Source: Parcubacteria group bacterium (GTDB taxonomy: Bacteria > Patescibacteriota > Minisyncoccia > Moranbacterales > UBA9337). Taken from it: 64,000 nucleotides of DNA. Every line of letters starts with the position of its first letter. Positions within the stretch are counted from its first letter, which is position 1. The notes beneath the pieces are model-generated. The model was not told the origin of the DNA. It was given only the letters and a program-made list of their open reading frames with translations, and did no database searches. The position numbers were made by a program, and so were the translations under genes. The stretch lies in NCBI GenBank assembly GCA_041662245.1, contig JBAZSW010000003.1:45798-109797 (forward strand), given 5' to 3'. Shown one piece after another: positions 10,410 through 48,809 of this stretch.

Positions 10410-11183
10410 TTATTGAGCTATTTCACTGATATCCGTTTTAGCAATATTGTCCATACTATGTTTATTAACTTCATCTGATATTATTTTGCCATCTACCATT
10501 TTTATAATTCTTGAAGCAAATTTATATTGATCTTGATCGTGCGTAACCATTAAAATAGTAATATTGAATTTTCTATTTATTTCCTGAAGCAAAGCCAAAA
10601 GGGTATCTCCAGCTTTTTGGTCTAAGTTTCCTGTCGGTTCGTCAGCAATAATAAATTTAGGATTAAGCAAAAGCGAACGGGCTAACGCAATTCTTTGTTG
10701 TTGTCCTCCAGAGAGATCATAAGGACGATAGTCTGCCCATCTACTCATTCCCACCAATTCTATTAATTTAGCAGCTTTTTCTATGCCACTATGAAAGGAC
10801 TCTCCTGCAATAACAGCTGGAATAGCCATATTTTCTATTACCGTTAACGATTTAATCCAGAAAGTCTGTTGAGGAATAAATCCCACCTTCTCATTTCTAA
10901 ATTGAGCTCTCCAATTTTTACTATATGCCCAGATATCTTCATCATCTATAATTATTTTTCCTTCCGTGGGTTCCTCTAAGCCATAAATAGAATGAAGTAA
11001 AGTTGACTTGCCGCAGCCACTAGGGCCGACCAACATCACAAATTCCCCTTCATATATCTTGGCATCAATTCCAAAAAGAACTTGAATATTATTTTCGCCT
11101 ACACGAAAACTTTTTTTTATTCCTTTTATTTCTACGGCTACGTTTTTATTCTCTATTTTTTCCATATTCCTGACGACAACCAT
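10410..11183 (-). CDS. ABC transporter ATP-binding protein (MacB/LolD/FtsE-like)
   Basis: Walker A GPSGCGKST, ABC signature LSGGQQQRIALARSL, Walker B IIADEPT. The start overlaps the giant gene's stop by 31 nt. Confidence 0.85.
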   Translation of the reverse strand: MVVVRNMEKIENKNVAVEIKGIKKSFRVGENNIQVLFGIDAKIYEGEFVMLVGPSGCGKSTLLHSIYGLEEPTEGKIIIDDEDIWAYSKNWRAQFRNEKVGFIPQQTFWIKSLTVIENMAIPAVIAGESFHSGIEKAAKLIELVGMSRWADYRPYDLSGGQQQRIALARSLLLNPKFIIADEPTGNLDQKAGDTLLALLQEINRKFNITILMVTHDQDQYKFASRIIKMVDGKIISDEVNKHSMDNIAKTDISEIAQ

Positions 11184-14100
11184 CCGAATTGTTTAGTTGT
11201 TGTTCCAATTATTATTTCTGCCGCTGATGATTTAGCTCCTTCTACTATTATAGTAGAGACTTTTGAATTTGTCATATTTCCCGCCGCATCAAAAACTTCC
11301 ACCTGATAACTATACATCTGTCCCACTTCCGCAGGGATAGTTATTAAATGATAAGTGTTTAATGGATCCTCTCCTGTAGATTGATCAAATCCTGAAACAG
11401 CAGCCCCTTTAGTATATTTAATTTTTAACGTAGTTGTTTCATTCGTCTCTATCTTAACATACATATTAGCTTGAGCGCTGCTACCTCTTCCTAAAACTTT
11501 TCCGATAGCTCTATTGACTACTATTTCTGGCGGACGAGAATCAGATTTGGTAGTTATCTTCTGCTCCACAGATTCAACTTCAATTCCATTGGCATCTGTT
11601 CCTAAAATAGTTAAGGTATATTCTTTGGCGGGATCCAAACCATTTAACTCTGCGCTGTGTTCAGTAACTCTTTCTTCAGTTAAATAATTATGCGGAGAAG
11701 CTTCATCGGATGATTTAAAATATAAATGAGTAGTAGCAGGAACATTAGTTTTATATTGCACAGATACCGCCGGCAAATCAACATTTTCCACATTCTGTAT
11801 TTGAATATCCGTTGCCATTGGCTTAATCGGAGTAGCAAAACTATATTGATCAGAGTTGAAACTATTTAAATCTCCGTCTATACAAGATACCTGAGCTTGA
11901 TAACTAGTTTCAGCATTCAATCCTATGACTTTCTGAATATGAGCTGAAGCGCCACTAGTTTCCTCAATGGTATTAGAAAGACTTCCTGCTCCATATTTCA
12001 AAGTACAAGTGGCTGAAGTATTAGTTTTCCAAGAAACATAAGCCGAATCAAGCTTTATGTCAGTAACAGTAAATTCTGATACAACTGGAGGTGGCAACGT
12101 AGTAAAATTACCAACTTCCGATGTACCAATATTTCCATCAGGATCGATATATTTCACTTTATAAAAATATTTGGTGTCTGCACTTAAACCATTCACAATT
12201 ACTTCGTGATCTGTCACACTGTCTACTTGACCATTAGTTTCCCCTAATGAAATAGTTTTTCCATATTCTATAAAAGAACTGGCTACACGACTAGTTCCCC
12301 AATTAAAAGTAGCTACAAATGATTGCGTTTTTACTGTTGGCTTTTGAATTAGAGCAGGGGCGGTAGTATATCTACCTGTAGGAATAATAGTAACAATACT
12401 CGAAGCAATTGATAAATTATTAGTATTATCCTTAGCTTTAATATAATAATAATAAGGCTTACTTTCCAATTCAGTATCCACATAAGCTGTTCCTGAAGTT
12501 GTTGCCACACTAGTGTATACTCCTGCTAATTCTGTAGAACGATAAATTACATATCCTTCAAAATTATCACTGCTCGCTCCTACAGGAGGAGTCCATTTAG
12601 TAGCTACACTATATTCTGCATTTTCTCTATCGGAAGTATCAAATATCTGAACATTAACCGGAGCACCAGGAGCAGAAGTATCTGCAGTAAAATCAGCATA
12701 AGCATACAAGCTATAGTCAATATTTCCCGCCTCATCCATGGCTACTACATAAAATCTATTAGATCCTTTTTGAGTAGCAAATGGGCCAGGTCCAGCGAAA
12801 GTAGAAGTTGTTTCGGTAACATTATAAGCATTGGGCAAAGTGTTAACTGCATAATAATATTTGAGCTTAGTTGGCTCACCAATAAATGATAATGGTTGGT
12901 CCCAATCAAAAGCAAATGAATTACCGGTTGAATAAGCAGGGGTTACTGTTAAATTCTCTGGCGGACTTGGGGCACTCGCGCTAAAATAATATTCTTGACT
13001 AATAGGAGCAGAAATATTGCCAGCATTATCCACAACTCTCAAATAAAACCAATTTTTTCCCGACTGATAAGCTCCTGTGGTGTGCATCGCGTTAGGAATA
13101 GCAATTGAAACATCAGTAATATTAGGAATATCAAACCAAGTATCAGCAATGTCTCCACCAGTTCGATATTGAATTTTCTGCACTCCCGAGTGAGCATCCG
13201 AAACATTGTTTTCCCATAAAAAAGAATAATTATCTGCCGCAGTAAATCCCGCTGGGGTGACGGATATATCACTAGGATTATTTGGAGAAGTATTGTCCAA
13301 TCTATAATTAAAAGCATTAAATGATCCAGCCGGTATCATATCAGCATCATCTACAGATTTAATTAAAAGATAATAATTTTGACCAGAAACCATGCTACTG
13401 GCAACATAATTAGTAGTTGTTTGATAAGCACCATCAACAAAAGCATCTGCGCTAGCATTTGTCCCAAAATAAACCCAATAACCTTTAACTCCCGAACCGC
13501 CCACTCCATCGCTAGCTCCCCCCACTACTTCATCAGCAGGCCATTCGAAATATGGACTAGTATATCCATACCAAGAAGCTGTATTAATGGAAGTCACTTT
13601 ATCTACTGCGCTATAAGCACTAACTATAGTTGGATTACTCGGAGCCAAAACATCTTGATAATAATTTATCTTATAATCTGTGACTAGAGGAGAAAAAATT
13701 TGATCACCCGAAAACAAATCTATTTTTACTTGGATATATTCATTAGCTGGACTGACAATATCATAATTATAATGACCCGCACCAAAATCTTTTTCATTGG
13801 AAACTAAATCCCAAGCTGACCAATCGGTTTGGTTATCTGAAGTTCGAGTATAAATATTAACACTTGTTCCTGTTGGTTTTGTATAATTGATATCTAAATT
13901 GGCCCAACGATAAACTGAAAGCAAATCAATCGCCTGCGAAATATAATTCCCTCTTTTTTCAAAGGCTGTTCCGTTGGTTTCAGAACCCACCACATAGCTA
14001 TACAGACCGTCTGGGTATGAATTAGTTCCTGTTCCCACAGTCGACCAAATTCTATTACTCGCACTATCTCCTGCCCCTCCAGTATTTACTTGTCCAGGAA

Positions 14101-17100
14101 AATTGGCAATTGTTTCCCAAGTATTTCCAGAAATATTATAACGATAATAAGCATTGGTATTAAGTCCTCTAGTCAAATACAAATATCCATCTCCGCCATC
14201 AGTCAAAGATGAACCAATTCCAATTGTCGCCGGAGTATTAGCTCTTTGAAGCCAAGTGCCAGCTGTCACATCATAACGCCAGAAAGTAAGTTGACTTTGC
14301 CCTCGAGTGGAATAAATATAGCCATCTTTATAAATAATTTTTGATCCATCTCCTTGGTTCCAATTTACAATCGTGGGAAGTAGAGCCGACCAACGTGATC
14401 CAGCTACCGCCGTAGTATCATAACGCCACCAATTATTACTTCCCGCTGTTCCACGAGTTAAATAAATGTAACGACTACCGTCATAAGTCATACTTGAACC
14501 AGTTCCCGTTTGAAGCGGAATTCTATCAGTAGCAATAACCTCCCAACTATTTGATGAAATTGTATATTTCATAAAATAATTATTAATACTTCCTGTTCTA
14601 GTAGTTCTAATTGCTCCAGGAGTAAGGTAAATCGCTCCTTCATCTTCATTATAAACCATAGCCGAACCAGTAAATATCCCTACTGGAGTTTTGGCCAATT
14701 TCGTAAATTCACCAGTCTGATAATCATATTTTCCAAAAGTATTGTCACTGTTTCCTCTTACTATATAAATATTATTATTTTCATCTTTAGCCAAATTAGT
14801 TCCGGCGTTAAAGCCAAAACTACTTCCACCACCAATATCTGCTGGTCCAAAAAATCCTTTTTGAGGAACTTCCCAGGAATTTTCATCAATATTAAACTTA
14901 TAAAAAGCATTTGAAGCCTCTCCTCTGATTGCATAAATATATCCTCCTGCAGCCTTTAGTGATCCTCCATAACCCACATAAGCTGGAATCATCGGCAATT
15001 CTGTCCAAGTATTAGAAGTCACGCTATATTTAAAGAAATTCTGACGTTGTTTACCGCTTAACATATAAACTGCATCAGTGTCCTCATCGTAAGTTAAACT
15101 ACCTCCGTTATAAATTCCTACTGGGGCTTTCTCCAAAGTTGACCAATGTCCCGTGCCAGTAGAATATTTTGAAAAATAGGGATAATTATTTCCTTGTAAA
15201 GCATAAATTGTGTCATTTCCATCATAAGCGGTATAAGACCCTTCATAAACTCTTTGCCCATCACTTTCATTGGGATTACCAAACTCCGCATTTTCCAAAT
15301 TGCTCCACACATTATTTTGAGTATCATATCGATAAAAAGCATCGTCATTTCCAGGAAGACCATAGATATAGCGGCTACCATCATATTGCAATGATCCTCC
15401 ATAAGTAAATACTTTAGAGGCATTACTTACTGACTCCCAACTATTGCTTCCGATACTATAGCGCCAAAAATCCGATTGGTCAGCTCCTCTTGTGGCATAT
15501 AAATACCCTTCAGGACCAGCTACTAGAAAACTTCCATAATAGACTGTCAGAGGAGCAGGTTGCAAAGTCGTCCAAACATCAGTAGCAATATCATAAGAAT
15601 AAAAAATATTGGAATTATTTCCATTTAAAACATAGATTTTATTACTCGACTCTACATAAGCCATTCTAGATCCATAACGGAATCCGGCTGGAGCATAAGA
15701 CAATCTCTTTTCATTCCAAAAACCATTGATTGAATTTAGTCTAAATGACCCGTCACTTTTAACGCTTACCTTATCCAATGTGCCAGATTGAAAATCTGCT
15801 TCACTAGTTTTCTCTTCTGTTAAATAGGGAGACACTCCTGAATAGTTATAAGTAAAAGCACTCCAAACAGTATCACTTATATTACCATCATTATCTTCAG
15901 TTTTAATTCTAAGATAATAATTACCAGTTTGCATTGCCATGTTAACCAAATATTCTGGATTAACCGTATACGATCCCAAAATTTCTGGATCAGCTCCGCT
16001 ATCAGTCCCAAAATAAACCCAATATCCATCTATTCCAGAATCATTATCAATGGCATCATTCCAAGTGAAATATGGGTGAGCATGTTTATATTCATCTCCA
16101 CTTAGCAAAGTGTCCCCACTAACTCTTTGGGAATAACCATTTATAATGTTTGGATTATTAGGATCATTATCTTCGCTATTATAAGATATTGTAAAATCAT
16201 TAACTGTAGGAGTACTGATTCCATCAGATGAACTTAAAGTAAATTTAACTTGAATATATCGATTTTCTGGCGATTGTATATCCGTTCCACTGAGAGTTTC
16301 CCAACTTGACCAACTATCCCCATCACTGCTAGTTCGTGTTTCGGTAACAATCGAAGTATTAGCTGGAATATTTTGATTAATCGCCAAAGAAGTCCACGAT
16401 GAGACATAAGACAAATCCATTTCCTCACTGATATATGTTCCCGTGGCTAGATAGTTACTGGCTCCTAAAGTATAGCTCCAAACATCTACTAATCCAAATC
16501 CAGGGGTGGCTAAAAAAGAGTTATTACCCATATATTCAAAAGACGCTCCATTATATGGCCCTCTTTCATAAACATATTTTTGATTAGCTGGCAAAAGCCT
16601 CCATGAATTGGTGGCAATTGTATATTCCCATGTTTCATCTTTATAATAACCCGCTATTGCATAAATTTTGCCATTATAATATGCCATATCTGTTCCATAA
16701 CTTTGTGCAAAAGACGTTGAAGTTAATTCAGTCCAATTATTATCTAACACATTATAACGTAAGAAAGCCGTTTCTCCATCTCCGGGCATCATATAAAGAT
16801 TATTTCCATCTGATTCTAGACGACTTCCGATATAAGACATATAATTCGCTCCTCCCGTGATAGAAGCACTGGTCATAGTAGTCCAACTATTGCCAGCAAT
16901 ATTATATCGGTAAAGATTATTGGTTCCATTACCTCGAGTCACATAAATATATCCGTCGCTACTATTATAAGTTGCTGCGCTACCATAACCCAAAGTTCCA
17001 AGTCCTGTGGTGCTAGCTGTGCTCCAAGAATTTCCAGCTACATTATAAATATAAAAAGCGGTAGTGTTGTTCCCCAATGGAATATAAAAGTTACCGTTAT

Positions 17101-18586
17101 AAAAAGTGCCTTTCGTATCATAGCTAAAACTCACTGGCGCATTAGTTAGAGTTGTCCAAGTATTAGTGGTTATATCATAACGATAAAAACCGTTTGATCC
17201 TCCCCTTAAAGCATAGACATAAGCCCCCGCTCCCGTTACTTTATTCCAAATAAAATCACTACCTGTTCCCACCGTAGCCGGCAAATCAGCTGGTCCTACC
17301 CAAGTCCCTGTCGCTCCACTATTAGGGTTAAATTTCCACAAATTATACGTTGCTCCACCTCGAATCGCATAAATAAGATTATCTGTCGGATTAAAAGTCA
17401 AAGAGGACATGTTATTAGTTTGTGGTGAAGTTGCTAGAGTTGTCCAATTATTAGTTGCAATATTATATCTTATGAAAGTATTGGTAGTATTCGAAACTAA
17501 AAAGTAAATACAATTATTATAATAAACTCCTTTTTGCTCACCGCTAAGAGCTACTGGAGAAGCTGTCATTGCTGGAGCTGCCACCCAATTATTGGCTACA
17601 ATATTATAGCGATAAAAAGTTGTCGTTCCTGATCCCCGAGTAATATACATGTAGCCATTATTGCCATATACCATATCAGCTCCACTCGTTAAAGTAGCTG
17701 GAATTGGATTTATTCCATACCACATATTTTCACCAACATCAAATCTCCAAAAATCAGAAAATCCCTGTCCTCTAGTTACAAACATATCTGTTCCATCAAA
17801 TTCAATTGAAGCTCCCGTATAAACAGTATCCAAAAGATCGGGTAATTTAGTCCAAACTCTATCTTCAATATTATATTTATAAAATTCCTTGGAAAAACCT
17901 CCAAAAATAAAATAAATATTCCCTGCGCCATCATAAACTAAATCACAACCATAATGAGTAGCCTGAGGTAAATCTTCTAATATATCCCACTTGTTTTCAG
18001 CTACATTATAACGATAAAAAGATTTATCTGCATAGCCTCTAGTGGCATAAAGATAATTATTTACCATCACTGAAGATGAACCAAAAGAAACAGTGTCTGG
18101 AGTAGGAGCCCAAGTTCGAGCATTCCAAGTTCCATCTGATTTTAATTGAATTGCGTCTTGAGAGCTGGTAGTACTCACATTTTCCAAACTGCCATTTTCC
18201 CATTCTTTTTGAGTAGTTACACTTTTCGATTGCGGAGCACTTAATACACTGGCACTATTAGAAAAAACTACCGCTGCCATTATTATTATTGTTCCTATTC
18301 TAACCGAAGACCACCAAAAAAATTTAAAGAATATCTTTATTAATTTGGCCAGAAAATCAACAAATTTAAAAACTATTTTTCTTGTTCTATATTTTTTACC
18401 CAGGCTCTTATTGTTTTTTAGCTCATATTGAGATAAAAATTCAGTCAATGAACTCGCTCTAGTATTTTTTATTTCAGCAATTTCTTTATTTTTTATTCTT
18501 TTTTTAAATAAAAATGCAAAAAAACCTTTCTTTGAAGAATTCTTTTTAGATCGAATTATTTGTGTTTGTTTTTTGTTTTTTAACAT
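11153..18586 (-). CDS. giant (2477 aa) membrane-anchored surface protein: basic cytoplasmic tail, one TM, many Kelch-type beta-propeller blades, C-terminal FN3-like domains
   Basis: An uninterrupted 7.4-kb ORF. Dozens of F/Y-R-Y-N-x-x-x-N-x-W-T/S-x-L blade motifs. Four C-terminal FN3-like modules (e.g. YKVKYIDPDGNIGTSEVGNFTT). TM segment WWSSVRIGTIIIMAAVVF. Confidence 0.8.
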   Translation of the reverse strand: MLKNKKQTQIIRSKKNSSKKGFFAFLFKKRIKNKEIAEIKNTRASSLTEFLSQYELKNNKSLGKKYRTRKIVFKFVDFLAKLIKIFFKFFWWSSVRIGTIIIMAAVVFSNSASVLSAPQSKSVTTQKEWENGSLENVSTTSSQDAIQLKSDGTWNARTWAPTPDTVSFGSSSVMVNNYLYATRGYADKSFYRYNVAENKWDILEDLPQATHYGCDLVYDGAGNIYFIFGGFSKEFYKYNIEDRVWTKLPDLLDTVYTGASIEFDGTDMFVTRGQGFSDFWRFDVGENMWYGINPIPATLTSGADMVYGNNGYMYITRGSGTTTFYRYNIVANNWVAAPAMTASPVALSGEQKGVYYNNCIYFLVSNTTNTFIRYNIATNNWTTLATSPQTNNMSSLTFNPTDNLIYAIRGGATYNLWKFNPNSGATGTWVGPADLPATVGTGSDFIWNKVTGAGAYVYALRGGSNGFYRYDITTNTWTTLTNAPVSFSYDTKGTFYNGNFYIPLGNNTTAFYIYNVAGNSWSTASTTGLGTLGYGSAATYNSSDGYIYVTRGNGTNNLYRYNIAGNSWTTMTSASITGGANYMSYIGSRLESDGNNLYMMPGDGETAFLRYNVLDNNWTELTSTSFAQSYGTDMAYYNGKIYAIAGYYKDETWEYTIATNSWRLLPANQKYVYERGPYNGASFEYMGNNSFLATPGFGLVDVWSYTLGASNYLATGTYISEEMDLSYVSSWTSLAINQNIPANTSIVTETRTSSDGDSWSSWETLSGTDIQSPENRYIQVKFTLSSSDGISTPTVNDFTISYNSEDNDPNNPNIINGYSQRVSGDTLLSGDEYKHAHPYFTWNDAIDNDSGIDGYWVYFGTDSGADPEILGSYTVNPEYLVNMAMQTGNYYLRIKTEDNDGNISDTVWSAFTYNYSGVSPYLTEEKTSEADFQSGTLDKVSVKSDGSFRLNSINGFWNEKRLSYAPAGFRYGSRMAYVESSNKIYVLNGNNSNIFYSYDIATDVWTTLQPAPLTVYYGSFLVAGPEGYLYATRGADQSDFWRYSIGSNSWESVSNASKVFTYGGSLQYDGSRYIYGLPGNDDAFYRYDTQNNVWSNLENAEFGNPNESDGQRVYEGSYTAYDGNDTIYALQGNNYPYFSKYSTGTGHWSTLEKAPVGIYNGGSLTYDEDTDAVYMLSGKQRQNFFKYSVTSNTWTELPMIPAYVGYGGSLKAAGGYIYAIRGEASNAFYKFNIDENSWEVPQKGFFGPADIGGGSSFGFNAGTNLAKDENNNIYIVRGNSDNTFGKYDYQTGEFTKLAKTPVGIFTGSAMVYNEDEGAIYLTPGAIRTTRTGSINNYFMKYTISSNSWEVIATDRIPLQTGTGSSMTYDGSRYIYLTRGTAGSNNWWRYDTTAVAGSRWSALLPTIVNWNQGDGSKIIYKDGYIYSTRGQSQLTFWRYDVTAGTWLQRANTPATIGIGSSLTDGGDGYLYLTRGLNTNAYYRYNISGNTWETIANFPGQVNTGGAGDSASNRIWSTVGTGTNSYPDGLYSYVVGSETNGTAFEKRGNYISQAIDLLSVYRWANLDINYTKPTGTSVNIYTRTSDNQTDWSAWDLVSNEKDFGAGHYNYDIVSPANEYIQVKIDLFSGDQIFSPLVTDYKINYYQDVLAPSNPTIVSAYSAVDKVTSINTASWYGYTSPYFEWPADEVVGGASDGVGGSGVKGYWVYFGTNASADAFVDGAYQTTTNYVASSMVSGQNYYLLIKSVDDADMIPAGSFNAFNYRLDNTSPNNPSDISVTPAGFTAADNYSFLWENNVSDAHSGVQKIQYRTGGDIADTWFDIPNITDVSIAIPNAMHTTGAYQSGKNWFYLRVVDNAGNISAPISQEYYFSASAPSPPENLTVTPAYSTGNSFAFDWDQPLSFIGEPTKLKYYYAVNTLPNAYNVTETTSTFAGPGPFATQKGSNRFYVVAMDEAGNIDYSLYAYADFTADTSAPGAPVNVQIFDTSDRENAEYSVATKWTPPVGASSDNFEGYVIYRSTELAGVYTSVATTSGTAYVDTELESKPYYYYIKAKDNTNNLSIASSIVTIIPTGRYTTAPALIQKPTVKTQSFVATFNWGTSRVASSFIEYGKTISLGETNGQVDSVTDHEVIVNGLSADTKYFYKVKYIDPDGNIGTSEVGNFTTLPPPVVSEFTVTDIKLDSAYVSWKTNTSATCTLKYGAGSLSNTIEETSGASAHIQKVIGLNAETSYQAQVSCIDGDLNSFNSDQYSFATPIKPMATDIQIQNVENVDLPAVSVQYKTNVPATTHLYFKSSDEASPHNYLTEERVTEHSAELNGLDPAKEYTLTILGTDANGIEVESVEQKITTKSDSRPPEIVVNRAIGKVLGRGSSAQANMYVKIETNETTTLKIKYTKGAAVSGFDQSTGEDPLNTYHLITIPAEVGQMYSYQVEVFDAAGNMTNSKVSTIIVEGAKSSAAEIIIGTTTKQFGWLSSGIWKK

Positions 18587-18988: not shown

Positions 18989-19008
18989 TTATCCACAGTT
19001 AATTAACA
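18989..19008 (+). promoter_or_regulatory. TTATCCACAGTTAATTAACA: perfect DnaA-box 9-mer within a 20-nt motif shared with 51028-51047
   Basis: Direct reading of the sequence. Minus-strand reading is TGTTAA-N5-TGTGGATAA. Confidence 0.3.
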
Positions 19009-19268
19009 CACCCTTTAAAATTAAAAGTTTTTGCCACTATTCTAGCCACTCTTACTGTTGTAAGGTTGCCCGCAATGCTAGTTTTTACTATCATTTTCGA
19101 TATATCCACATTTTTTAAGTTATTTTTAATTAAAAGATTATCCATATTAACTAATAACTTTTCACTTAAATTTAGATCTCCCTCCCATTTTAATTCATCT
19201 ACTATCTCCTTTTCTCTCATTAAGTATAATATTGCCTTATTTTCTCTTATTTCTAATGTAATATTCAT
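18999..19268 (-). CDS. degenerate, truncated TsaB/YeaZ-like protein (N-terminal domain only, 89 aa)
   Basis: Co-linear with the TsaB N-terminus: LSEKLLVNMDNLL ~ HAEHLLPMIDELL, and SIAGNLTTVRVARIVAKTF ~ GPGSFTGLRIGVATAKGL. Confidence 0.35.
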   Translation of the reverse strand: MNITLEIRENKAILYLMREKEIVDELKWEGDLNLSEKLLVNMDNLLIKNNLKNVDISKMIVKTSIAGNLTTVRVARIVAKTFNFKGCVN

Positions 19269-19272: not shown

Positions 19273-20025
19273 TTATTTATTTATTTTTCCCCAATTAATA
19301 TTCCAAGGATCAGTCTTTCTCTTTGGCGCAATTTGATTGTGTCCCAGAATATAGCTTATCTCATATTTATTTTCCAGATATGCTATTAAATCATTTACTG
19401 CCACATATTGCTCTGAAGTAAATTCATCTTCTTCTATATTCATTAATTCTACTCCAATAGAAAAATTATTTACTCCCGTTCTTCCATCAGGCATCCTACT
19501 CTCTCCGGCATGATAGGCGATATTTTCATCCTTAACCAATCTAAATATTTCTCCTTTTCTATCAATTACATAATGTGGAGCTACTCCATATTCTTTATAT
19601 TCTAAGATAAGTTTTTCTAAACTATATTTATCTCCACCTAAGGCATTATAAGAAGAATGTAAAATGACAGTATCTATTTTCCTTCCATTAGAATAATCAA
19701 ATCCCCAAGATACCAATTTATCCTTTATTGCTAGACTATTTTTTAAATCTTTTTTAATTTCTGGCTTTATTTCTTCTTCTACCGAAATACCATCTGAATT
19801 TTCATTCTCAATAACTTCACTTTCCGCAACCGGTTTTTGAATATTGTTTTCAACTTCAACCACGGATAATTTTTCTTTGGGTTCTTTATCTTCTTTCAAG
19901 GGGACTTCCAAGGATTTGTTTTCATAAAGTAGGGCTTTCTGAGGAATTTTTAAATAAAAAAATCCCCACCAAGCCAAAGCCAGGGCAAGGATTAAAACTA
20001 AAATTGAACCTATTTTTATTTTCAC
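19273..20025 (-). CDS. N-acetylmuramoyl-L-alanine amidase (Amidase_2/PGRP fold), membrane anchored
   Basis: N-terminal TM. IDTVILHSS...YHAG...GVELMN...LGHNQIAPKRKTDP. Confidence 0.75.
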   Translation of the reverse strand: MKIKIGSILVLILALALAWWGFFYLKIPQKALLYENKSLEVPLKEDKEPKEKLSVVEVENNIQKPVAESEVIENENSDGISVEEEIKPEIKKDLKNSLAIKDKLVSWGFDYSNGRKIDTVILHSSYNALGGDKYSLEKLILEYKEYGVAPHYVIDRKGEIFRLVKDENIAYHAGESRMPDGRTGVNNFSIGVELMNIEEDEFTSEQYVAVNDLIAYLENKYEISYILGHNQIAPKRKTDPWNINWGKINK

Positions 20026-20091
20026 ATTTTTTATTTAAGTCAAGCTTTTGCACATTATAACCGCTTCATTTTTTAAAAAATTTGGTGTTTT

Positions 20092-20409
20092 TTAATTCTC
20101 TAAACAATCACAACTATCTATTTCTAAGCTATATATACCTCCCTCCATATTAATAACCTCTTTTCCAATATCATCAAGCAATTGAGCCACGTACCCACTT
20201 CGACTACCGCTTCGACAAACAAGAATAACTTTTTTGTTCCAATTAATATTATTCAGATTATTCATGATTTCTCCCATAGGAATAAGCTTGGAATTTTTTA
20301 TTCTCACAATTTTAAATTCTCCTTCCTCTCTCACATCCACTATTTCAAGATTTTGAAATTCTTTATTTATTAATTCTTTAAATTGTCTTTTATCAATAGA
20401 ATTTACCAT
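20092..20409 (-). CDS. single-domain rhodanese sulfurtransferase
   Basis: Active-site loop ILVCRSGSRSG. Confidence 0.75.
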   Translation of the reverse strand: MVNSIDKRQFKELINKEFQNLEIVDVREEGEFKIVRIKNSKLIPMGEIMNNLNNINWNKKVILVCRSGSRSGYVAQLLDDIGKEVINMEGGIYSLEIDSCDCLEN

Positions 20410-20412
20410 TTT

Positions 20413-21129
20413 TTAAGAGGCTAACATAGCTATTCTTTTATAATAAACATTGACATCAGCCACCCATTTATTGGCGGCTGCCTGACCTCCGGTGGCAGCG
20501 CAACTTCTCCCACATTTCCAAACCACCATCTTAGCTGGGGTATCAATATTCTGTTCTACTAATTCAGAAATTCTTCCACCAATAGCCCCAACTGCCTCTT
20601 CGGCGCTTCCGAAGCAACCATATCCCATAGCTACACCTTTAGAACCCATTCCCTTATATCCCCAGTAATTATAACATGTTTGTCCATTTTTCCAAGGAGA
20701 GTGCAATCCCCAACTGCTTTCCTTTTTAGCTATTCCCACAATTAAAGCTGCTATTTTTTTATCATATTTAGCTATAAAAGGAGCCATTTCTTCTATAGGA
20801 TGATCTTTTGTTATATTTCTAATCTCCCCTTCTAGATAGCTCATCTCTTCGAAATCTTCACCTTGAACACTTTTCGAGGCAAAAGTGTAATCTTCTATCT
20901 CATTCAAATTCCAATTATCATCTAATTTTAATTCAGCAACATGATTTAATCCGCTATTCCTAGCCTCAATATTGCCAAATACTAAATTTTTAACATAACC
21001 ACCGTAAAAAAAACAGCCCATAATGATTATCGCTATGGTTGTTAGCTTGTTACCTCTGTCTTTATACTTATTTTTTAATTTTTTAACTACTTTTTTACAA
21101 AAATCCAAAGGATTTTTACACATAAACAA
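20413..21129 (-). CDS. GH73-like glucosaminidase domain protein, membrane anchored, with Cys-rich C-terminal tail (paralog 1)
   Basis: GIAKKESSWG ~ glucosaminidase LESGWG catalytic motif. CYNYWGYKG ~ NNLFGIKG. C-terminal MVVWKCGRSCAATGGQAAANKW is shared with paralog 2. Confidence 0.45.
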   Translation of the reverse strand: MFMCKNPLDFCKKVVKKLKNKYKDRGNKLTTIAIIIMGCFFYGGYVKNLVFGNIEARNSGLNHVAELKLDDNWNLNEIEDYTFASKSVQGEDFEEMSYLEGEIRNITKDHPIEEMAPFIAKYDKKIAALIVGIAKKESSWGLHSPWKNGQTCYNYWGYKGMGSKGVAMGYGCFGSAEEAVGAIGGRISELVEQNIDTPAKMVVWKCGRSCAATGGQAAANKWVADVNVYYKRIAMLAS

Positions 21130-21160
21130 CTTTATTAATATTTACTAGCAACTGTTTCAG

Positions 21161-21193
21161 GACACAGAACCTATCATATCAAAGACACAGACC
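21161..21193. promoter_or_regulatory. direct repeat GACACAGAaCC ...(N11)... GACACAGAcCC, 32-64 nt upstream of the paralog-1 start
   Basis: Seen in the sequence. Start-to-start spacing is 22 nt (two helical turns). Confidence 0.3.
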
Positions 21194-21204
21194 CTGTCAA
21201 TGAA

Positions 21205-21213
21205 GTTATCCAC
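21205..21213 (+). promoter_or_regulatory. perfect DnaA-box 9-mer TTATCCACA (aagTTATCCACAg, the same 13-mer as at 18986)
   Basis: Direct reading of the sequence. Confidence 0.3.
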
Positions 21214-21400
21214 AGCCGAAATATTACTTCACACCCAAGCAAGGGAACGTTTTTGTCTAAAAGTTGAATGGCTTTTATAAAAATAAATCTCATATTAAAA
21301 AATAATCTAACATATATGAAAAAAAATTCCACAAACAAAAAAATCCTTATGAATAAAGGAATTTTTCGTATTGAATTTTGAAAAATTAATAAGCTTAATT

Positions 21401-22414
21401 TTATCTTTCCTCATTTAATCTTTCCAAAATCATATCTACATCTGAAATCCACTTATCAGCAGCTGCCTGACCTCCCGTGGCAGCGCAACTTCTTCCACAT
21501 TTCCAAACCACCATTTTTTCAGCTGTATCTCTACTATAATTTTCCACTAACTCTTCAATTCTTTTAGCAGTAATATCTACTGCTATTTCTCTATTTTTAA
21601 AACAAGAATGTCCGCCAGAACCCAATTCTTCGGTTTTGCCCCTATATCCAACATAATTATAACAGTCCTTTCCTTTTAATACAGGCACTCTTTTGCCCCA
21701 GTTGCTTTCTTTCTTAGCTATTGCAATATAAAAGGCTGCCACTTTAGGATCTTTCTTGAGAATATAGGGCATCATTTCTGCTATAGGATAGCCTTTAACT
21801 AATTCTTTAGCACGAATATTAAAATCTTTATCAGCCTCTGCCTTTAAATATCCAGCTATTTCTGCCAAATAGATATCTTCCTTCTCACTTGTCCATTCAT
21901 TTTTATTGATTGTTTCCGTATAAGCACCGGCTATTTCTTTGGGAGCAGCATCTTTTGCAGACACTCCTAACCCCAAATAACGATAGATAAAAGACATGGA
22001 AATCATTCCTATAATTATTGCCACCAAAATTGAAGCATTCCACAATCTTAAAATGGAAAACCTGCTAAGGAAAAACTCATATTTTTTAACGGTTACATTT
22101 TTTTGATAGTTGTCAAACCTTTTAGCAAATATCCGATATTGATAATATAAATAATCGCTATATTTAGCCTTAATTTTATTATGCTCTTGCATCGCTCTGC
22201 GATTTAAACTATCCAGCATCTTATTTTTAGTTCTAAATTCTACTAATTCAGCAGTCTTTCTATCATCACAATTAAAATATAAACAAGAGTCATTGGCAAA
22301 AAAAATATTTTGCCTCTTACCCTTAGAAAGCAAAAAACTTCCCGATTTTTCATTTCGAGATAAGTTAATTTTTTTTATTCTTTTATTATTTTTCGCATTA
22401 AAAGCACTATCCAT
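21401..22414 (-). CDS. GH73-like glucosaminidase domain protein with ~115-aa cytoplasmic N-terminus, TM and Cys-rich tail (paralog 2)
   Basis: IAIAKKESNWG, CYNYVGYRG, MVVWKCGRSCAATGGQAAADKW. Co-linear with paralog 1. Confidence 0.45.
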   Translation of the reverse strand: MDSAFNAKNNKRIKKINLSRNEKSGSFLLSKGKRQNIFFANDSCLYFNCDDRKTAELVEFRTKNKMLDSLNRRAMQEHNKIKAKYSDYLYYQYRIFAKRFDNYQKNVTVKKYEFFLSRFSILRLWNASILVAIIIGMISMSFIYRYLGLGVSAKDAAPKEIAGAYTETINKNEWTSEKEDIYLAEIAGYLKAEADKDFNIRAKELVKGYPIAEMMPYILKKDPKVAAFYIAIAKKESNWGKRVPVLKGKDCYNYVGYRGKTEELGSGGHSCFKNREIAVDITAKRIEELVENYSRDTAEKMVVWKCGRSCAATGGQAAADKWISDVDMILERLNEER

Positions 22415-22436
22415 CTTTTTCTAAAATTTAACTATA

Positions 22437-24215
22437 TTATTCTTTAGTAACTCTCAATATTTCCTCTATTGATGTTGTCCCTTCTGCTGCTCGGATAAAT
22501 CCGTCCTCTATCATAGTTAACACTCCCATTTCTGAAGCCTTTTTTTCAATGGTTTCCGCAGAAGCCGCTTGGGTAATCAACTTTTCAATTTCAGAATTAA
22601 TCTCTAATACTTCATAAATACCCATTCTTCCCTTGTAGCCTTCATCGTTGCATCTCTTACAGCCTTTGGGTTTATAAAATTTTATAGCTTCCCATCCCTT
22701 TTTTGCATCCACCTTATCTTTTAAATGATCTACCTTTGATAGCATCTCTAACATTTTTTTGGTATCGAAATTTTTCTCCAAAGTCTCCACTTCTTTTTTT
22801 TCTAAATTATATTCCGTTTTACATTCATTACAAAGTTTCCTTACTAAACGTTGAGCAATCACTACGTTGGTAGTAGAAGCTACCAAAAATGGCTCTGCTC
22901 CCATATCTAAAAGTCTAGGTAATGTTCCTGCGGCACTATTGGTATGCAAAGTCGAAAGCACTAAATGTCCCGTCATAGCGGCATGCATTGCAATTTCCAT
23001 AGTTTCTTCATCTCGAATTTCTCCAACCATTATAATATCTGGATCTTGTCTCAGCAAAGCTCTTAAGCTAGCGGCAAAAGTCAATCCTATTTTTGAATTG
23101 ATCTGAGTCTGATTAACTCTTGGCATTCTATATTCAACAGGATCTTCTACTGTACTAATATTAACTGTTGGGGTATTTAAAATATCCATTATAGTATAGA
23201 GAGTAGTTGTTTTTCCACTTCCCGTTGGTCCTGTTACCAGAATCATTCCGTTGGGCTTAGTAACTTCCCTATGGACGATTTCTAAGGCCTCGCCTTGAAG
23301 ACCCATCTTTTCTAAGGTTAAACCTTTTGACGTTTCGTCCAATAAACGCATTACCACTTTTTCTCCATCAAATATTGGCAAAATATTGACACGAAAAGAT
23401 ATTTTGTATTCATCATTGATTATTTTAAATCGACCATCCTGAGGAAGTCGATGCTCATCTAGTTTCAAATTAGCTAAAACTTTTATACGAGCAATAATCC
23501 CAGACATTATTTTTCTAGGTAAAGTCATGGCATCATGCAAAATTCCATCTATACGATATCTAACTCGCACTTCTTTTTCATCTGGTTCAATATGAATATC
23601 ACTGGCCGATTCAAGGATGGCATGTTTTATTAAAGTATCTACTACTCTTATAACTGGCAAATCCTCCGCTTCTTTTGACAATTTTTTATCTGAAGATTTA
23701 TCTATTTTTTCAGCAATAGCTCCTTTTGTTAAATTTTCTCCATCACCTTCTAGTCCAATCATGTCTCCAAACTCAGCCTTAAGACTCTTTTCATATTGCT
23801 TTAGAATATTAGATATGCCCTCTTCAGTGGTAAGGCAAGGCGTCACTGATAATCCAGTTTTCTTTTTTATAAATTCTATCGTTTGCAAATCGTCAGGATT
23901 CAACATTGCTACTTTCAATGTGCTATCCGATTTATCAAAAGCTACTATTTTATACTTTTTAGCGATTGGCTCAGGTATTATTTTTAAAATCTCCGGAGGA
24001 ATTGTTTCTTTACTTATGTCCACAAAGGGAGTTCCTAAAATATAGGCATACAATTTATCCAATTCTTCTTTCGAAACTAATTTTTTTTCCAATAATAATT
24101 CCCCCATTGGTCTTTTCTCTTTTTCTGCCAAATCAAAAATATCTTCAATCTCTTTTAAATCCAAGAGCTCACTATCTAACAAAAAGCCTTTTAATTGTTT
24201 ATTATCTACTCGCAT
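22437..24215 (-). CDS. pilB: type IV pilus / type II secretion assembly ATPase (GspE/PilB family)
   Basis: N-terminal T2SSE_N domain, Walker A LVTGPTGSGKTTTLY, Asp/His boxes, C-terminal tetracysteine CNEC...CKRC. Confidence 0.85.
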   Translation of the reverse strand: MRVDNKQLKGFLLDSELLDLKEIEDIFDLAEKEKRPMGELLLEKKLVSKEELDKLYAYILGTPFVDISKETIPPEILKIIPEPIAKKYKIVAFDKSDSTLKVAMLNPDDLQTIEFIKKKTGLSVTPCLTTEEGISNILKQYEKSLKAEFGDMIGLEGDGENLTKGAIAEKIDKSSDKKLSKEAEDLPVIRVVDTLIKHAILESASDIHIEPDEKEVRVRYRIDGILHDAMTLPRKIMSGIIARIKVLANLKLDEHRLPQDGRFKIINDEYKISFRVNILPIFDGEKVVMRLLDETSKGLTLEKMGLQGEALEIVHREVTKPNGMILVTGPTGSGKTTTLYTIMDILNTPTVNISTVEDPVEYRMPRVNQTQINSKIGLTFAASLRALLRQDPDIIMVGEIRDEETMEIAMHAAMTGHLVLSTLHTNSAAGTLPRLLDMGAEPFLVASTTNVVIAQRLVRKLCNECKTEYNLEKKEVETLEKNFDTKKMLEMLSKVDHLKDKVDAKKGWEAIKFYKPKGCKRCNDEGYKGRMGIYEVLEINSEIEKLITQAASAETIEKKASEMGVLTMIEDGFIRAAEGTTSIEEILRVTKE

Positions 24216-24239: not shown

Positions 24240-24617
24240 TTATCTTAGAGATAAAACTTCTTTTATTTTTTCTACTATTTCTCTTATTTGATAATCACCC
24301 TTCACTAAATAGGTTGTAGCCCCCAATTCAAGAGCTTTCTCTATATCATCCAAGCTTCCTAGATTAGTTAACAAAATAACTGGTATATCAGAAGTATCAT
24401 TATTGTCTTTAACTTCCTTCAATACTTCAAATCCATTTTTCTTAGGAAGAATTATATCCAATAGAATTATGTCTGGCTTACTAGTACCCACTAAAACGAT
24501 CCCCTCTTCTCCATCTGCAGCTACTGCAACACTAAAACCCTCCGATTCTAAAAACTCGGATAAAACATTCCTCAAGGTTGCATCATCTTCAATTATTAAT
24601 ATTTTTTTATTTTTCAT
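24240..24617 (-). CDS. stand-alone response-regulator receiver (CheY-like), no output domain
   Basis: ILIIEDD...D(53)IILLDIILP...K; 125 aa. Confidence 0.8.
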   Translation of the reverse strand: MKNKKILIIEDDATLRNVLSEFLESEGFSVAVAADGEEGIVLVGTSKPDIILLDIILPKKNGFEVLKEVKDNNDTSDIPVILLTNLGSLDDIEKALELGATTYLVKGDYQIREIVEKIKEVLSLR

Positions 24618-24656: not shown

Positions 24657-25595
24657 CTAGGCAATTGGTAAGGAAAAATGAAACTCACTTCCCTCTCCTT
24701 CAATAGAGTGAAACCAAACCTTACCTCTGCTCCTCTCAATAATATTTTTCGCAATATATAAGCCCAATCCCGTTCCTCCCGTTTCTTTATTGGAGGCCTC
24801 TTTGCTTCGATAAAATTTATCGAAAACACGAATTTGCTCATTTTTAGGTATCCCAATCCCGCTATCTTTTATAGAAATTAATGCTTTTCTATTATCTTTT
24901 CCTACCTTTATTATCACACGTCCATTTTCTTTATTATATTTTATAGAATTTGATATAAAATTATCTAAAACCACTTCCATTCTTTTCTCATCGCCAATTA
25001 TTTTAGGCATATTATCATCTACCGTTAAATCGATATTTACTTTGTTCTTTTGTGTTAGCAGTTTATTTTTGTCTACCACTTTCCTTACTAAATCAACTAT
25101 ATCTATATCATCTCTTCTGGTGAAGAAATTGTTTTGATCCATTCTGGCTACATCTAATAAATCATTGACCATTCTGGACATAAGGGCATTGGAAGACTCG
25201 ATGTTGTTTATAATATTTCTTTGCTTATCCGTTAGCCCTTCGCTATATTTAGCTACTAAAAGTTCAATATCCCAACTTATGCCCGTAAGCGGGGTTTTTA
25301 ACTGATGTGAAACTATAGAGACGAACTCTGATTTGGTTTTATTGACTTGAGCTAATTTTTCCATGCTCCCTATGATGATATTTCCAATAGTCAGAATGGC
25401 TATTACCACCACGGATTCTGCTACTACTAAAAATTCTGTAGTTATATATTTCCTGGAAACGAAGAAAACTATTGCCATGACAGAGGCAATAATAAATCCC
25501 AATGCAATAAACAAGAAACTAGGCGCCTGCCAAAAACTAACCCCTAAACTATCTGCCTGCTTTTTTATATTTAAATCATTAACTATCCAACTCAT
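24657..25595 (-). CDS. sensor histidine kinase (2 TM, HisKA + HATPase_c)
   Basis: H-box SHQLKTPLT, N-box, G2 box GGTGLGLYIAKNI. Confidence 0.8.
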   Translation of the reverse strand: MSWIVNDLNIKKQADSLGVSFWQAPSFLFIALGFIIASVMAIVFFVSRKYITTEFLVVAESVVVIAILTIGNIIIGSMEKLAQVNKTKSEFVSIVSHQLKTPLTGISWDIELLVAKYSEGLTDKQRNIINNIESSNALMSRMVNDLLDVARMDQNNFFTRRDDIDIVDLVRKVVDKNKLLTQKNKVNIDLTVDDNMPKIIGDEKRMEVVLDNFISNSIKYNKENGRVIIKVGKDNRKALISIKDSGIGIPKNEQIRVFDKFYRSKEASNKETGGTGLGLYIAKNIIERSRGKVWFHSIEGEGSEFHFSLPIA

Positions 25596-26511: not shown

Positions 26512-26850
26512 TTACTTTTTTCCAATCTGATGTAGTGCTGAATGTATAACTGACATTACTAAACTAAAAACCAGTGCCCACCAAAAACTATCCACTTTGA
26601 AACCATCTACTATTCGACTAGCCAATAAAACTAAACAAGCATTAATAACTAGAGTAAAAAGTCCTAAAGTAAATATATTAATAGGTAAAGTCAATATCAA
26701 TAAGATAGGCTTTAAAAAAACGTTAATTACTCCCAAAACTAAAGCCACCATAAAAGCCGTAAAAACACTATTCACACTCACTCCCGAGAGTAATTGTGCG
26801 CTGATAAAAACCGCCAATGTCATTACTGTCCAATTTATTATATACTTCAT
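26512..26850 (-). CDS. DUF360/YvlD-like 4-TM membrane protein (holin family IV-like)
   Basis: Four TM helices; GLFTLVINACLVLLASRIVDGF..FWWAL pattern. Confidence 0.6.
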   Translation of the reverse strand: MKYIINWTVMTLAVFISAQLLSGVSVNSVFTAFMVALVLGVINVFLKPILLILTLPINIFTLGLFTLVINACLVLLASRIVDGFKVDSFWWALVFSLVMSVIHSALHQIGKK

Positions 26851-28131: not shown

Positions 28132-29136
28132 TTAAAGAACCCTTTTGATTTTTTGAATTAATCGATAACTCCAATATTTAATTGGATTAATAATAATATC
28201 ATAACTACCAGAAAATTCAACTGGCTGATTATTTTGTGAGAAGCCTCGTTTAAATCTAGTTACTCCCGCCCATTTCAACTCCCTCTCTTTATTTTCCTCA
28301 CCAATGCTTACTCCACCAAAATCATACCTTAAAGCACCTCTTTTTTTTGCTTCCTTTATCATTTCCCACTGCAAAAGAAAGGGAGCCATTACATTCTTAT
28401 TCTCATCATCTGATGCCCCATGCAAATAGGTAGCTGTTTCTCCATAAATAACCAGTAGTGCCCCTGCAATAACTACCCCCCTATAAGTAGCCAAGCATAA
28501 CTTCAAATTATCTCCAGAAATAGCACCCAACATCTCTCGATAATATATTTTAGGATGAAAACTGATATTTTTTCTATTTCCGGTTTTTTCAATTAAATTT
28601 AAAAAATCTTCCACTTTTTTATCATCAGGCCTCAAACCATTTAGTATTTCTATTTGAACTCCTTTTTTATTTGCTAATTTTATATTATATCTTGTCTTGG
28701 GTTTCATTTCAGATAAAATATCTTCCTCGTTTTTGTTTATATCAATAACAAAAATTTGTTTAGGCTGCATATCATGAGGAGCCTTAGCTATCTCATATTT
28801 TTTATTTTTTAATGAATTTTTTATTTTTTTATCAAAATTATCTATTCTAACCCAAGCAACCTTTTTGATTTTTGCTAAATTCATCAAATCCTCCATGACC
28901 CTGCCTAATTCTTCTTCCTTAATATCCTTATCGCTTATTGGACCACGAGGAACATAAAAATATTTTCCTATCAAAGGAAGCTGGTGTTCCAAAATATTTG
29001 ACCAGAATTTTTTATCTGATATATTATAATTTTTTATTCCAAATTTATTTTGAAAATTCATCCATTGATTAGATTGCAAAAATCCTCCATAAGGAGAATT
29101 TCTTTGGATAAATTCATCTCTATTGTTATTTAGCAT
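28132..29136 (-). CDS. FemAB-family peptidoglycan interpeptide-bridge aminoacyltransferase
   Basis: GGFLQSNQWMNFQNKFG N-terminus typical of FemABX. 334 aa. Confidence 0.6.
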   Translation of the reverse strand: MLNNNRDEFIQRNSPYGGFLQSNQWMNFQNKFGIKNYNISDKKFWSNILEHQLPLIGKYFYVPRGPISDKDIKEEELGRVMEDLMNLAKIKKVAWVRIDNFDKKIKNSLKNKKYEIAKAPHDMQPKQIFVIDINKNEEDILSEMKPKTRYNIKLANKKGVQIEILNGLRPDDKKVEDFLNLIEKTGNRKNISFHPKIYYREMLGAISGDNLKLCLATYRGVVIAGALLVIYGETATYLHGASDDENKNVMAPFLLQWEMIKEAKKRGALRYDFGGVSIGEENKERELKWAGVTRFKRGFSQNNQPVEFSGSYDIIINPIKYWSYRLIQKIKRVL

Positions 29137-40816: not shown

Positions 40817-40838
40817 TTTTTAGAATTTTAATTCGATA

Positions 40839-41507: not shown

Positions 41508-41565
41508 TTATTTTATATTTTACCCATTTGAAGATATTTTTTTAATCCTAAAATACTTATATTTT

Positions 41566-42183: not shown

Positions 42184-42284
42184 AATTTTGTTTTCTTAAT
42201 AATATAAAATCAAAAACAAGATTTCTCATTCATCCTATTATACATCAATAAAAAATCTATCCAAAACCTAACTCTCAATTAAAA

Positions 42285-44090: not shown

Positions 44091-44129
44091 ATTTAAATTA
44101 ATTATTTAGTTAACCCAATAATAAATTCC

Positions 44130-44816: not shown

Positions 44817-44927
44817 ATTTTTTATTTTTTTCGCTCGTCATTTCGAGCTTATCCACTAATTATATAATTTATGACACTCCTTTAGGATTTTAACTGTACA
44901 ATTTTAAAAAAATACCCGAATAAAAAG

Positions 44928-45356: not shown

Positions 45357-45483
45357 AATTTTAAATACTCAATGTTCAATGTTTATTCAATATTCAACTC
45401 TCAATATCCCATAAATTAATTTGAATATTAATTTATTTTATTATTAAATGTGTATTGGTTATTGCATATTGGAATATTATTTT

Positions 45484-46611: not shown

Positions 46612-46630
46612 AAGTCTTAAGCATAAAAAA

Positions 46631-48565: not shown

Positions 48566-48765
48566 AAAAATAATTTTTGTATTTATTTGAGCGAAACCGT
48601 TTTCCTTATTTTACCACAAAAACAAAGAAAAAATAACAACACGAAAAGTAATATTTTTCCTGAGTATAATTATAACAGAAATATAAGAATATACAAAATT
48701 TTTATTTTTCATAATTGTACTATTTTTATAACATATAAAAATAAGTCATGAAAATAAAATTTAAA

Positions 48766-48809
48766 AACCATCAAAGCTACTAATTCAAGCAATTGATGGT
48801 TATGTTTTT
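48766..48809. terminator. hairpin AACCATCAA-N18-TTGATGGTT + T-run; bidirectional terminator after the 73-aa gene
   Basis: 9-bp perfect stem. T5 on plus, T-rich on minus. Confidence 0.55.

Follow-up and report, generated by a model that had tools for sequence, protein, structure and literature searches.

Which function is served by two adjacent genes for hypothetical membrane proteins that lie between a cell-wall amidase gene and a PilB gene in a Parcubacteria group bacterium? The genes are part of a 64,000-nucleotide stretch of assembly GCA_041662245.1 (contig JBAZSW010000003.1, positions 45,798 to 109,797 of the forward strand), hereafter the window, and belong to a row of five co-directional minus-strand genes encoding an Amidase_2 protein, a rhodanese, the shorter and the longer of the two paralogs (short form and long form), and PilB (Table 1). 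An earlier reading of this DNA, the original prediction, had delimited these genes and named the three flanking families, all of which was confirmed by strand, coordinates, and Pfam matches; it had further described a cell-wall remodelling island with two tandem paralogs similar to glycoside hydrolase family 73 (GH73), dedicated to opening peptidoglycan for a pilus or secretion apparatus. Our analysis supports the GH73 likeness and argues against the dedication to a pilus. By analogy with known enzymes, the two proteins are rather probably membrane-tethered GH73-like peptidoglycan glycosidases that act on the membrane-proximal wall of their own cell as housekeeping enzymes in growth and division.

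The AlphaFold2 (AF2) model of the short form (m07ad246aa4ef, built on a 44-sequence alignment) comprises a transmembrane (TM) helix at residues 25-50, a disordered linker at residues 50-88, and a domain at residues 90-238, the last with predicted local distance difference test (pLDDT) values mostly >90. The five best PDB matches of this model in a Foldseek search were all FlgJ, and the closest structures were the glucosaminidase domain of Ecd09610 (8yxk), LytB (7pj3), FlgJ (5dn4/5dn5), TM0633 (4qdn), and AtlA (7qfu). The lysozyme-like fold postulated for the paralogs is therefore borne out at the level of structure prediction, being nearest to solved GH73 structures. At the level of profiles, the family aligned to Escherichia coli FlgJ over the motif region (hhalign, E 9e-5) and to a profile of 24 FlgJ-domain sequences over the whole domain (E 2.3e-5, 76% probability, 103 columns); a profile search of the PDB gave a weak FlgJ match (E ~0.5) exactly across the motif region. 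K-K-E137-S-x-W-G aligns to L-E-S-G-W-G of FlgJ, which places E137 on the GH73 general acid, a glutamate that is invariant in GH73 and situated towards the C-terminal end of its central helix (PMC4752226, PMC4633669), and C-Y-N-Y-W-G-Y-K-G aligns to S-Y-N-L-F-G-V-K-A. The motifs quoted in the original prediction are present in both proteins (KKESSWG/KKESNWG, CYNYWGYKG/CYNYVGYRG, and the C-terminal MVVWKCGRSCAATGGQAAA(N/D)KW, from which one Ala had been omitted). The family thus has in common with GH73/PF01832 the lysozyme-like fold, the glutamate of E-S-x-W-G at the end of the central helix, and an equally spaced Y-N-x-x-G-x-K, and peptidoglycan is likely to be the common substrate.

Among 382 members, no substitution was seen at E137, S138, G141, P145, N154, G157, C172, W204, K205, C206, G207, C210, and W222; C152 occurs in all but one (381) and D225 in 361. 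Four of these positions are cysteines: C152 and C172 flank a shortened β-lobe, and C206 and C210 form a CxxxC motif just ahead of a remodelled loop. None of them, nor W204, W222, or D225, has a counterpart in FlgJ, which aligns Ser and Val at the first two cysteine positions and nothing at the other two. The stretch W-K-C-G-x-S-C-...-K-W takes the place of the GH73 segment A-G-Y-A-T-D-P-x-Y-A-x-K-L and of the last helix. As judged from this alignment, the Cys-rich tail, which had been called private, is the catalytic domain's own final motif and helix in remodelled form and not an additional module, given that it occupies a regular GH73 position and that C152 and C172 lie outside it. The four cysteines may pair into two disulfides or bind a metal and so keep the trimmed elements in place, which could make the activity redox-sensitive.

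Most of this similarity escapes routine annotation. An NCBI protein from a metagenome-assembled genome (MAG) of a "Parcubacteria group bacterium" matches the short form with 100% identity (236 amino acids [aa] in that version, the start of which would be the ATG at 21123), and relatives of the short form bear the names Moranbacteria or Moraniibacteriota. The short form has 566 and the long form 1356 homologs, and all named ones are "hypothetical"; nearly all of the 120 long-form homologs listed cover 90-100% of the query, and no homolog among the matches listed carries a precomputed Pfam domain. A hidden Markov model (HMM) of the family recovers the long form with E 2.2e-61. An exhaustive HMMER scan of 1.84 billion cluster representatives gave 309 matches, 283 of them with E<=1e-10, and the family is a closed cluster of ~300 representatives at 50% identity. 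A literature search found no paper that joins the Candidate Phyla Radiation with GH73. A recent phage origin was considered and rejected, because no close viral structure or sequence was found and the chromosomal synteny is ancient: the best viral Foldseek matches, annotated as GH73, were all weak, and when 50,697 phage records were searched with the domain by tblastn, only a chance dUTPase match came up.

The two proteins are paralogs, as had been claimed, with 52% identity over the C-terminal 131 aa (BLASTP, E 2e-44), and membrane anchoring with a cytoplasmic N-terminus in the long form likewise holds as a prediction. Each has a single hydrophobic segment (residues ~29-50 and ~119-151) with a positively charged N-terminal flank; in the hydropathy scan that of the long form reached a maximum KD19 of 2.01 with four K/R in its flank, and that of the short form has six. 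By the positive-inside rule, both are predicted to be oriented N-in/C-out, leaving ~118 residues of the long form ahead of its TM segment. This N-terminal region carries a conserved LFSKG..FFTEDSxLYITP..KWDSLSxR block, was modelled by AF2 with low confidence (pLDDT 67.5, predicted template modelling score 0.30), and gave no Pfam match and only noise in a PDB profile search. A lipobox-like IIMGC (residues 35-39, window 21013-21027) follows the basic N-terminus of the short form, as it does in close relatives. A lipoprotein nature, considered for this reason and because Lgt is the most frequent neighbour of the family, was rejected as a family feature, with Cys39 absent from most aligned members and a continuous TM helix in the AF2 model; lipidation of the short form, if it occurs, would be clade-specific because the cysteine is not conserved family-wide.

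We then examined the pair in relatives. A scan of species-representative genomes identified 433 encoding places, and 80 loci were retrieved, on which all neighbourhood counts given here are based. These loci are labelled Moraniibacteriota, Paceibacteria, Parcubacteria, Patescibacteria, or generically "bacterium", and many are labelled "uncultured Bdellovibrionales". MAGs with the last label (e.g., L022, L024, L025, L028, L029, and L033) show the pair in the same synteny as labelled Moranbacteria, and the Bdellovibrionales label on those records is probably wrong. The pair appears to be specific to Moranbacteria-like Patescibacteria. At least two same-strand copies of the family occur in 64 of the 80 loci, in the order long then short, since the N-terminal probe, where it matched, lay just upstream of the first copy. 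Identity is 0.65 among long forms, 0.55 among short forms, and 0.45 between them. Of 128 copies compared, 126 had their nearest neighbour in their own class, and for none was it the partner from the same genome. Judging by these identities, long and short forms represent two ancient orthologous lineages and not a recent local duplication. The two forms lie apart in a 73%-identical relative, with four unrelated genes between them. A third full-length family copy lies between the short form and the rhodanese gene at L065:8468-8866 and L088:9212-9604; both loci combine the upstream Lgt/thioredoxin-like context with the downstream rhodanese context described below and may be intermediates between the two architectures.

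The tails of the two copies show an unexpected resemblance. At 12 variable tail columns, long and short forms of the same genome were 0.495 identical, compared with 0.378 for shuffled partners (64 genomes), a z of 5.3 from a permutation that ignores phylogeny and therefore not a probability; the corresponding excess in the rest of the domain was almost nil (0.013). Tail variants differ among lineages and are shared within them. In the window, the tail tracts are 87-93% identical at the nucleotide (nt) level with eight of ten third positions matching, compared with 37-73% and three to seven of ten in the remainder of the domain. The pattern points to gene conversion or to a joint adaptation of the active-site loops, or to a combination of the two, and between the two copies of the window the tail is probably a gene-conversion tract.

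The commonest gene order runs from Lgt (47 of 80 loci) through a 136-aa protein (31 of 80) to the long and short forms and then to a 314-aa protein (42 of 80), with a gene for a YkuD L,D-transpeptidase later (15 of 80). The 136-aa protein (e.g., L004:4308-4718), whose gene lies after Lgt and before the long form, combines a TM segment with a domain like those of glutaredoxin and thioredoxin (Pfam Glutaredoxin E 4e-4, just under the cut-off), with CPHC in 21 and CSHC in nine of its 31 copies (30/31 together); it is a candidate extracytoplasmic thiol-disulfide oxidoreductase beside the four-cysteine proteins. TM-anchored and encoded directly upstream of the pair, it recalls the thioredoxin-fold CPHC oxidoreductases of the DsbA type, for which the pair, with its four invariant cysteines predicted to be extracytoplasmic, would supply candidate substrates; this likeness to thiol-disulfide systems is a genomic association. 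The 314-aa protein has multiple hydrophobic segments and a weak, sub-threshold EamA-like match. A sub-clade shows a different order, complete in the window, in which a histidine kinase (HisK), a response regulator (RR), and PilB precede the long and short forms, followed by rhodanese, Amidase_2, an 89-aa open reading frame (ORF), orf89, and in some cases MerR; among the 80 loci PilB lies directly upstream in 10, and rhodanese, Amidase_2, and orf89 occur in 20, 18, and 20, respectively.

Several observations weigh against reading the pair as active GH73 enzymes under thiol control. First, the similarity to GH73 stays under every curated sequence threshold. The paralogs have no Pfam or NCBIfam match even at E<=1 and nothing significant in PHROGs or in PDB sequence searches (phmmer, profile). 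PF01832, the model with which the assignment was to be checked, matched neither window protein and is the only Pfam family that recurs among relatives (13 of 44 members, best E 6.5e-4, always below threshold). Second, the family shows a ~17-residue gap relative to the β-hairpin of FlgJ, and the second Glu of its TTEY segment has no counterpart; no conserved acidic residue was found between the YNYWGY(K/R)G and C-F motifs in the 80% consensus of each lineage. In GH73, a second catalytic Glu is located on this mobile hairpin (E223 in FlgJ, E156 in Auto), yet a hairpin carboxylate is not universal (PMC4752226). Third, the YATD motif, which is highly conserved in GH73 and contains an Asp essential in LytB (PMC4633669), is missing in both window proteins. 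Its place is taken by CAATGGQ in the window type and by CAGH(D/S)P elsewhere in the family; when the subfamilies were aligned separately by hhalign, D-P of the A-G-H-D-P tail aligned with D-P of YATDP, and the T-G-G-Q tail of the window type showed no YATD equivalent, with low local confidence. Both the hairpin deletion and the tail mapping rest on profile alignments of this low local confidence. Finally, neither the gene for the thioredoxin-like 136-aa protein nor that for the EamA-like 314-aa protein was found in the 64-kb window, and the rhodanese of the window, having no TM segment, signal peptide, or hydrophobic segment, looks cytoplasmic.

The conserved W222 and D225 were considered as a YATD equivalent (W222-x-x-D225) and rejected: according to two hhalign runs and the helix positions, on which this placement rests, K-W falls on K-L of FlgJ in the last helix, downstream of YATDP. 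Without YATD and with a truncated hairpin, the proteins could be weakly active, changed in activity, or inactive. The family thus has the fold and the catalytic Glu of GH73, but it stays below the threshold of Pfam and has neither the YATD motif nor a carboxylate on the hairpin, and because of these three absences we classify it as a divergent GH73-like variant and not as a plain member.

With these points in mind, we propose that the long and short forms are an ancient tandem pair, each a single-pass N-in/C-out protein whose flexible linker would carry an extracytoplasmic lysozyme-fold domain, a distant and unannotated offshoot of GH73. The domain retains the general acid (short-form E137, long-form E236), its hairpin is shorter and has no second carboxylate, and a family-specific loop stands in place of YATD. 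If the proteins are active, we infer that they would most likely use one carboxylate to cut the glycan strands of peptidoglycan, with assistance from the substrate as has been put forward for LytB, in which one essential acidic residue suffices (PMC4633669). The cysteine quartet might stabilise the trimmed β-lobe and the remodelled loop or regulate them, a role to which one observation, the thioredoxin-like neighbour, points. The conserved cytoplasmic domain of the long form may serve as a handle for regulation or localisation. The membrane tether, the widespread occurrence of the pair, and its envelope-related neighbours (Lgt, the CPHC ectoprotein, the EamA-like protein, and YkuD) together suggest housekeeping processing of the wall. 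In the clade of the window, the pair has come to lie between HisK-RR-PilB and rhodanese-Amidase_2-orf89.

The closest precedent is provided by SagA and SagB of Staphylococcus aureus, TM-anchored GH73 enzymes of which SagB controls the length and release of glycan strands (bioRxiv 10.1101/2020.05.21.109470). They share with the predicted arrangement a single N-terminal TM segment, an extracytoplasmic GH73-type domain, the presence of two paralogs per genome, and membrane-proximal action, and the polytopic EamA-like protein encoded beside the pair in the relatives recalls the partnership of SagB with SpdC, a polytopic membrane protein that determines where SagB cleaves in their complex for the release of nascent strands. 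No sequence relationship to SagA/SagB is detectable past the GH73 core, and no CAAX-protease-like SpdC homolog was identified for the pair. The SagB construct (soluble part 32-284, bioRxiv 10.1101/2020.05.21.109470) leaves no room for a ~118-aa cytoplasmic domain like that of the long form, and the cysteine quartet belongs to the present family and not to SagA/SagB. Neither the enzyme class nor the membrane-anchored arrangement is therefore a new kind of system.

One alternative is a different chemistry: with the same fold and role, the proteins might be lytic transglycosylases or muramidases and not N-acetylglucosaminidases, which we consider unlikely.

The model of the original prediction, wall opening dedicated to a type IV pilus or another envelope apparatus in the manner of FlgJ, VirB1, and EtgA, appears somewhat more doubtful still. 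It draws on the 22 bp that separate the PilB stop codon from the long-form start, a distance so short that the two genes probably share a transcript, on the loci in which PilB directly precedes the pair (in eight related ones the order HisK-RR-PilB-LONG is complete), and on FlgJ, a structural relative that performs exactly such a job for the flagellum (PMC4752226). The adjacency to PilB is restricted to this clade, however, and in the 47 loci where the pair follows Lgt, PilB is not adjacent. No other pilus gene (PilC, PilM, PilT, or pilin) was recognised by Pfam among the window ORFs scanned, and a type IV secretion system (T4SS) cluster ~26 kb away has its own LysM-CHAP hydrolase. The short form has a promoter-like site of its own, the best sigma-70-like match of the region in a consensus scan (21200-21173, TTGACA-16-TATGAT with a TG extension, 11/12), and unrelated genes can come between the two forms, as in the close relative mentioned above. 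Small lysozyme-fold enzymes do serve flagella (FlgJ) and secretion systems or type IVb pili (VirB1, EtgA, BfpH, R64 PilT), and in the clade of the window one likewise lies beside PilB; unlike these, the pair stands outside any pilus cluster, mostly has no adjacent PilB, and consists of membrane-anchored tandem paralogs kept independently of PilB as an ancient lineage-wide unit. Clade-specific co-expression of the pair with PilB is possible.

We also give little credence to the idea that the domains are dead or altered and act as peptidoglycan-binding scaffolds or regulators, for instance by activating or positioning Amidase_2 or other hydrolases. The absent YATD motif, the shorter hairpin, and the lack of a second conserved carboxylate would fit such a role, as would the joint retention of two diverged copies, which is often the sign of an enzyme with its regulator. 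Against it stands the (near-)invariance of the Glu, the following Ser, N154, and the motif aromatics in 382 sequences of both lineages, a conservation that pseudo-enzymes usually lose, and single-carboxylate GH73 enzymes are active (PMC4633669). An attack on a host cell's wall by an epibiotic or parasitic producer, possibly with pili pulling the cells together, finds some appeal in the adjacent PilB and the downstream extracellular amidase and is very improbable, because the N-terminal TM tether and a linker of only ~40-50 residues would keep the domain inside the envelope of its producer, no targeting, toxin, or immunity-like partners were seen, and the usual neighbours (Lgt, YkuD) are housekeeping genes.

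A more far-reaching form of our housekeeping proposal is a long shot: the two proteins would be an obligate heteromeric autolysin, and its activity would depend on whether the four cysteines are oxidised, reduced, or metal-bound, a state that would be set by the CPHC ectoprotein in most lineages and possibly by rhodanese-linked sulfur chemistry in the window, and the loop would co-evolve as an interface or as a reader of lineage-specific peptidoglycan.

Table 1. Features of the GH73-like locus and its surroundings, with positions counted from the first nucleotide of the window.
Feature	Position	Strand	Remarks
orf89, 89-aa ORF	18999-19268	(-)	Accompanies Amidase_2; without Pfam match
Amidase_2 gene	19273-20025	(-)	PF01510, E 1.3e-24
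Rhodanese gene, single-domain, 105 aa	20092-20409	(-)	PF00581, E 3e-14
Paralog 1, short form, 238 aa	20413-21129	(-)	Basic short N-terminus, one TM segment, disordered linker, GH73-like domain
Short-form GH73-like domain, residues 90-238	20416-20862	(-)	E137, C152, C172, C206, C210, W222, D225
Tail MVVWKCGRSCAATGGQAAANKWVADV, short form, residues 201-226	20452-20529	(-)	Long-form equivalent 21437-21514
KKESSWG catalytic-Glu motif, short form (E137)	20707-20727	(-)	Aligned to FlgJ LESGWG
Short-form TM segment, residues ~29-50	20980-21045	(-)	AF2 helix 25-50 and hydropathy
Intergenic spacer between long and short forms, 271 bp	21130-21400	(-)	Promoter-like match inside
Paralog 2, long form, 337 aa	21401-22414	(-)	Cytoplasmic N-terminal region, one TM segment, linker, GH73-like domain
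Long-form GH73-like catalytic domain, residues ~195-337	21404-21832	(-)	E236, C251, C271, C306, C310
Long-form equivalent of KKESSWG (E236)	21695-21715	(-)	
Long-form TM segment, residues ~119-151	21962-22060	(-)	Hydropathy scan
Long-form N-terminal cytoplasmic region, residues 1-118	22061-22414	(-)	
PilB-type assembly ATPase	22437-24215	(-)	T2SSE E 8.6e-134, MshEN
Stand-alone receiver	24240-24617	(-)	Upstream of PilB
Histidine kinase	24657-25595	(-)	Upstream of PilB

The immediate surroundings do not form an acquired island. The GC content of the locus (0.30-0.34) shows no compositional break against the whole window (0.27-0.37, ~31% throughout), and the gene arrangement is a conserved chromosomal neighbourhood; horizontal acquisition, considered in view of the island claim, was rejected on composition and synteny. 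The product of the PilB gene scores 587.2 bits with TIGR02538, under the cut-off of 675.65, and its T2SSE and MshEN domains are clear; on this evidence it is assigned to the PilB/GspE family of ATPases with its subtype not fixed. The rhodanese (53.7 bits with PF00581, cut-off 22.2) has a CRSGSRS active-site loop at residue 65, and CRSG[SAG]RS is found in 19 of 21 related copies. Where rhodanese follows the pair (20 of 80 loci), its CRSGxRS loop recalls the periplasmic rhodanese PspE, from which the window protein differs in having no export signal; its gene nevertheless lies only 3 bp from the stop codon of the extracytoplasmic short form. It also has a sub-threshold match to the NCBIfam entry "rhoda_near_glyco" (E 2.3e-10) and a C-x-C near its end (DSCDCLEN).

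The Amidase_2 domain spans residues 114-240 (PF01510, 87.4 bits, cut-off 26), also matches endolysin/amidase PHROGs, and stays below the cut-off of the AmpD equivalog model (E 2.9e-26, 92 versus 143). Preceded by an N-terminal hydrophobic segment, the protein is predicted to be membrane-anchored or secreted and to belong to the N-acetylmuramoyl-L-alanine amidase family, and its His123 (LHSS) and His229 (LGHNQ) are consistent with a Zn site. The gene orf89, which starts 4 bp after the Amidase_2 stop codon and mostly comes right after Amidase_2 in the relatives, encodes a protein without a hydrophobic segment that weakly matches phrog_33764 of unknown function (E 1e-4) and might act together with the amidase or regulate it.

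Farther away, the window contains other envelope-related genes. A Patescibacteria-type T4SS cluster at 37898-50789, which fits the system described in PMC12102498, includes a VirB4/TraG-like P-loop ATPase (42285-44090), TrbL/VirB6 (46631-48565), the LysM-CHAP wall hydrolase (49713-50789), and several large ORFs without a Pfam match, among them one of 972 aa (37898-40816); a tyrosine recombinase (integrase) follows at 51205-52122. Just downstream of the MerR gene, a minus-strand ORF of 2477 aa (11153-18586) has an N-terminal TM-like segment and many repeats that look Kelch/β-propeller-like and fn3-like by eye, and in one relative (L005) a 1782-aa protein with faint fn3 matches comes directly after the family member. 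Three plus-strand Wzy_C (O-antigen ligase-like) paralogs, two in tandem (34161-35483, 35546-36778) and one at 57621-58910, occur near glycosyltransferase and flippase genes (58897-61994), and together these genes suggest an extensive capacity for surface glycan synthesis or protein glycosylation. On the minus strand, a Beta-lactamase2-family protein (9268-10317) is encoded between ABC/FtsX-like transporter genes, and a Phage_holin_4_2 family membrane protein (26512-26850) and a FemAB-family peptidyltransferase (28132-29136) were also identified.

In Patescibacteria, how the wall is built, remodelled, and divided is largely unknown, and most envelope proteins are annotated as hypothetical. The assignment presented here gives ~300 clusters (50% identity) of unannotated proteins a GH73-like lysozyme fold, supports the seed of a new Pfam/CAZy subfamily, and sets right a link to pilus biogenesis that was appealing but lacked support. 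The cysteine quartet, the thioredoxin-like neighbour, and the concertedly changing active-site loop are testable features of the family. If the heteromeric, cysteine-gated model were true, it would mean thiol-switched control of wall cleavage in ultrasmall bacteria that possibly have none of the usual autolysin regulators.

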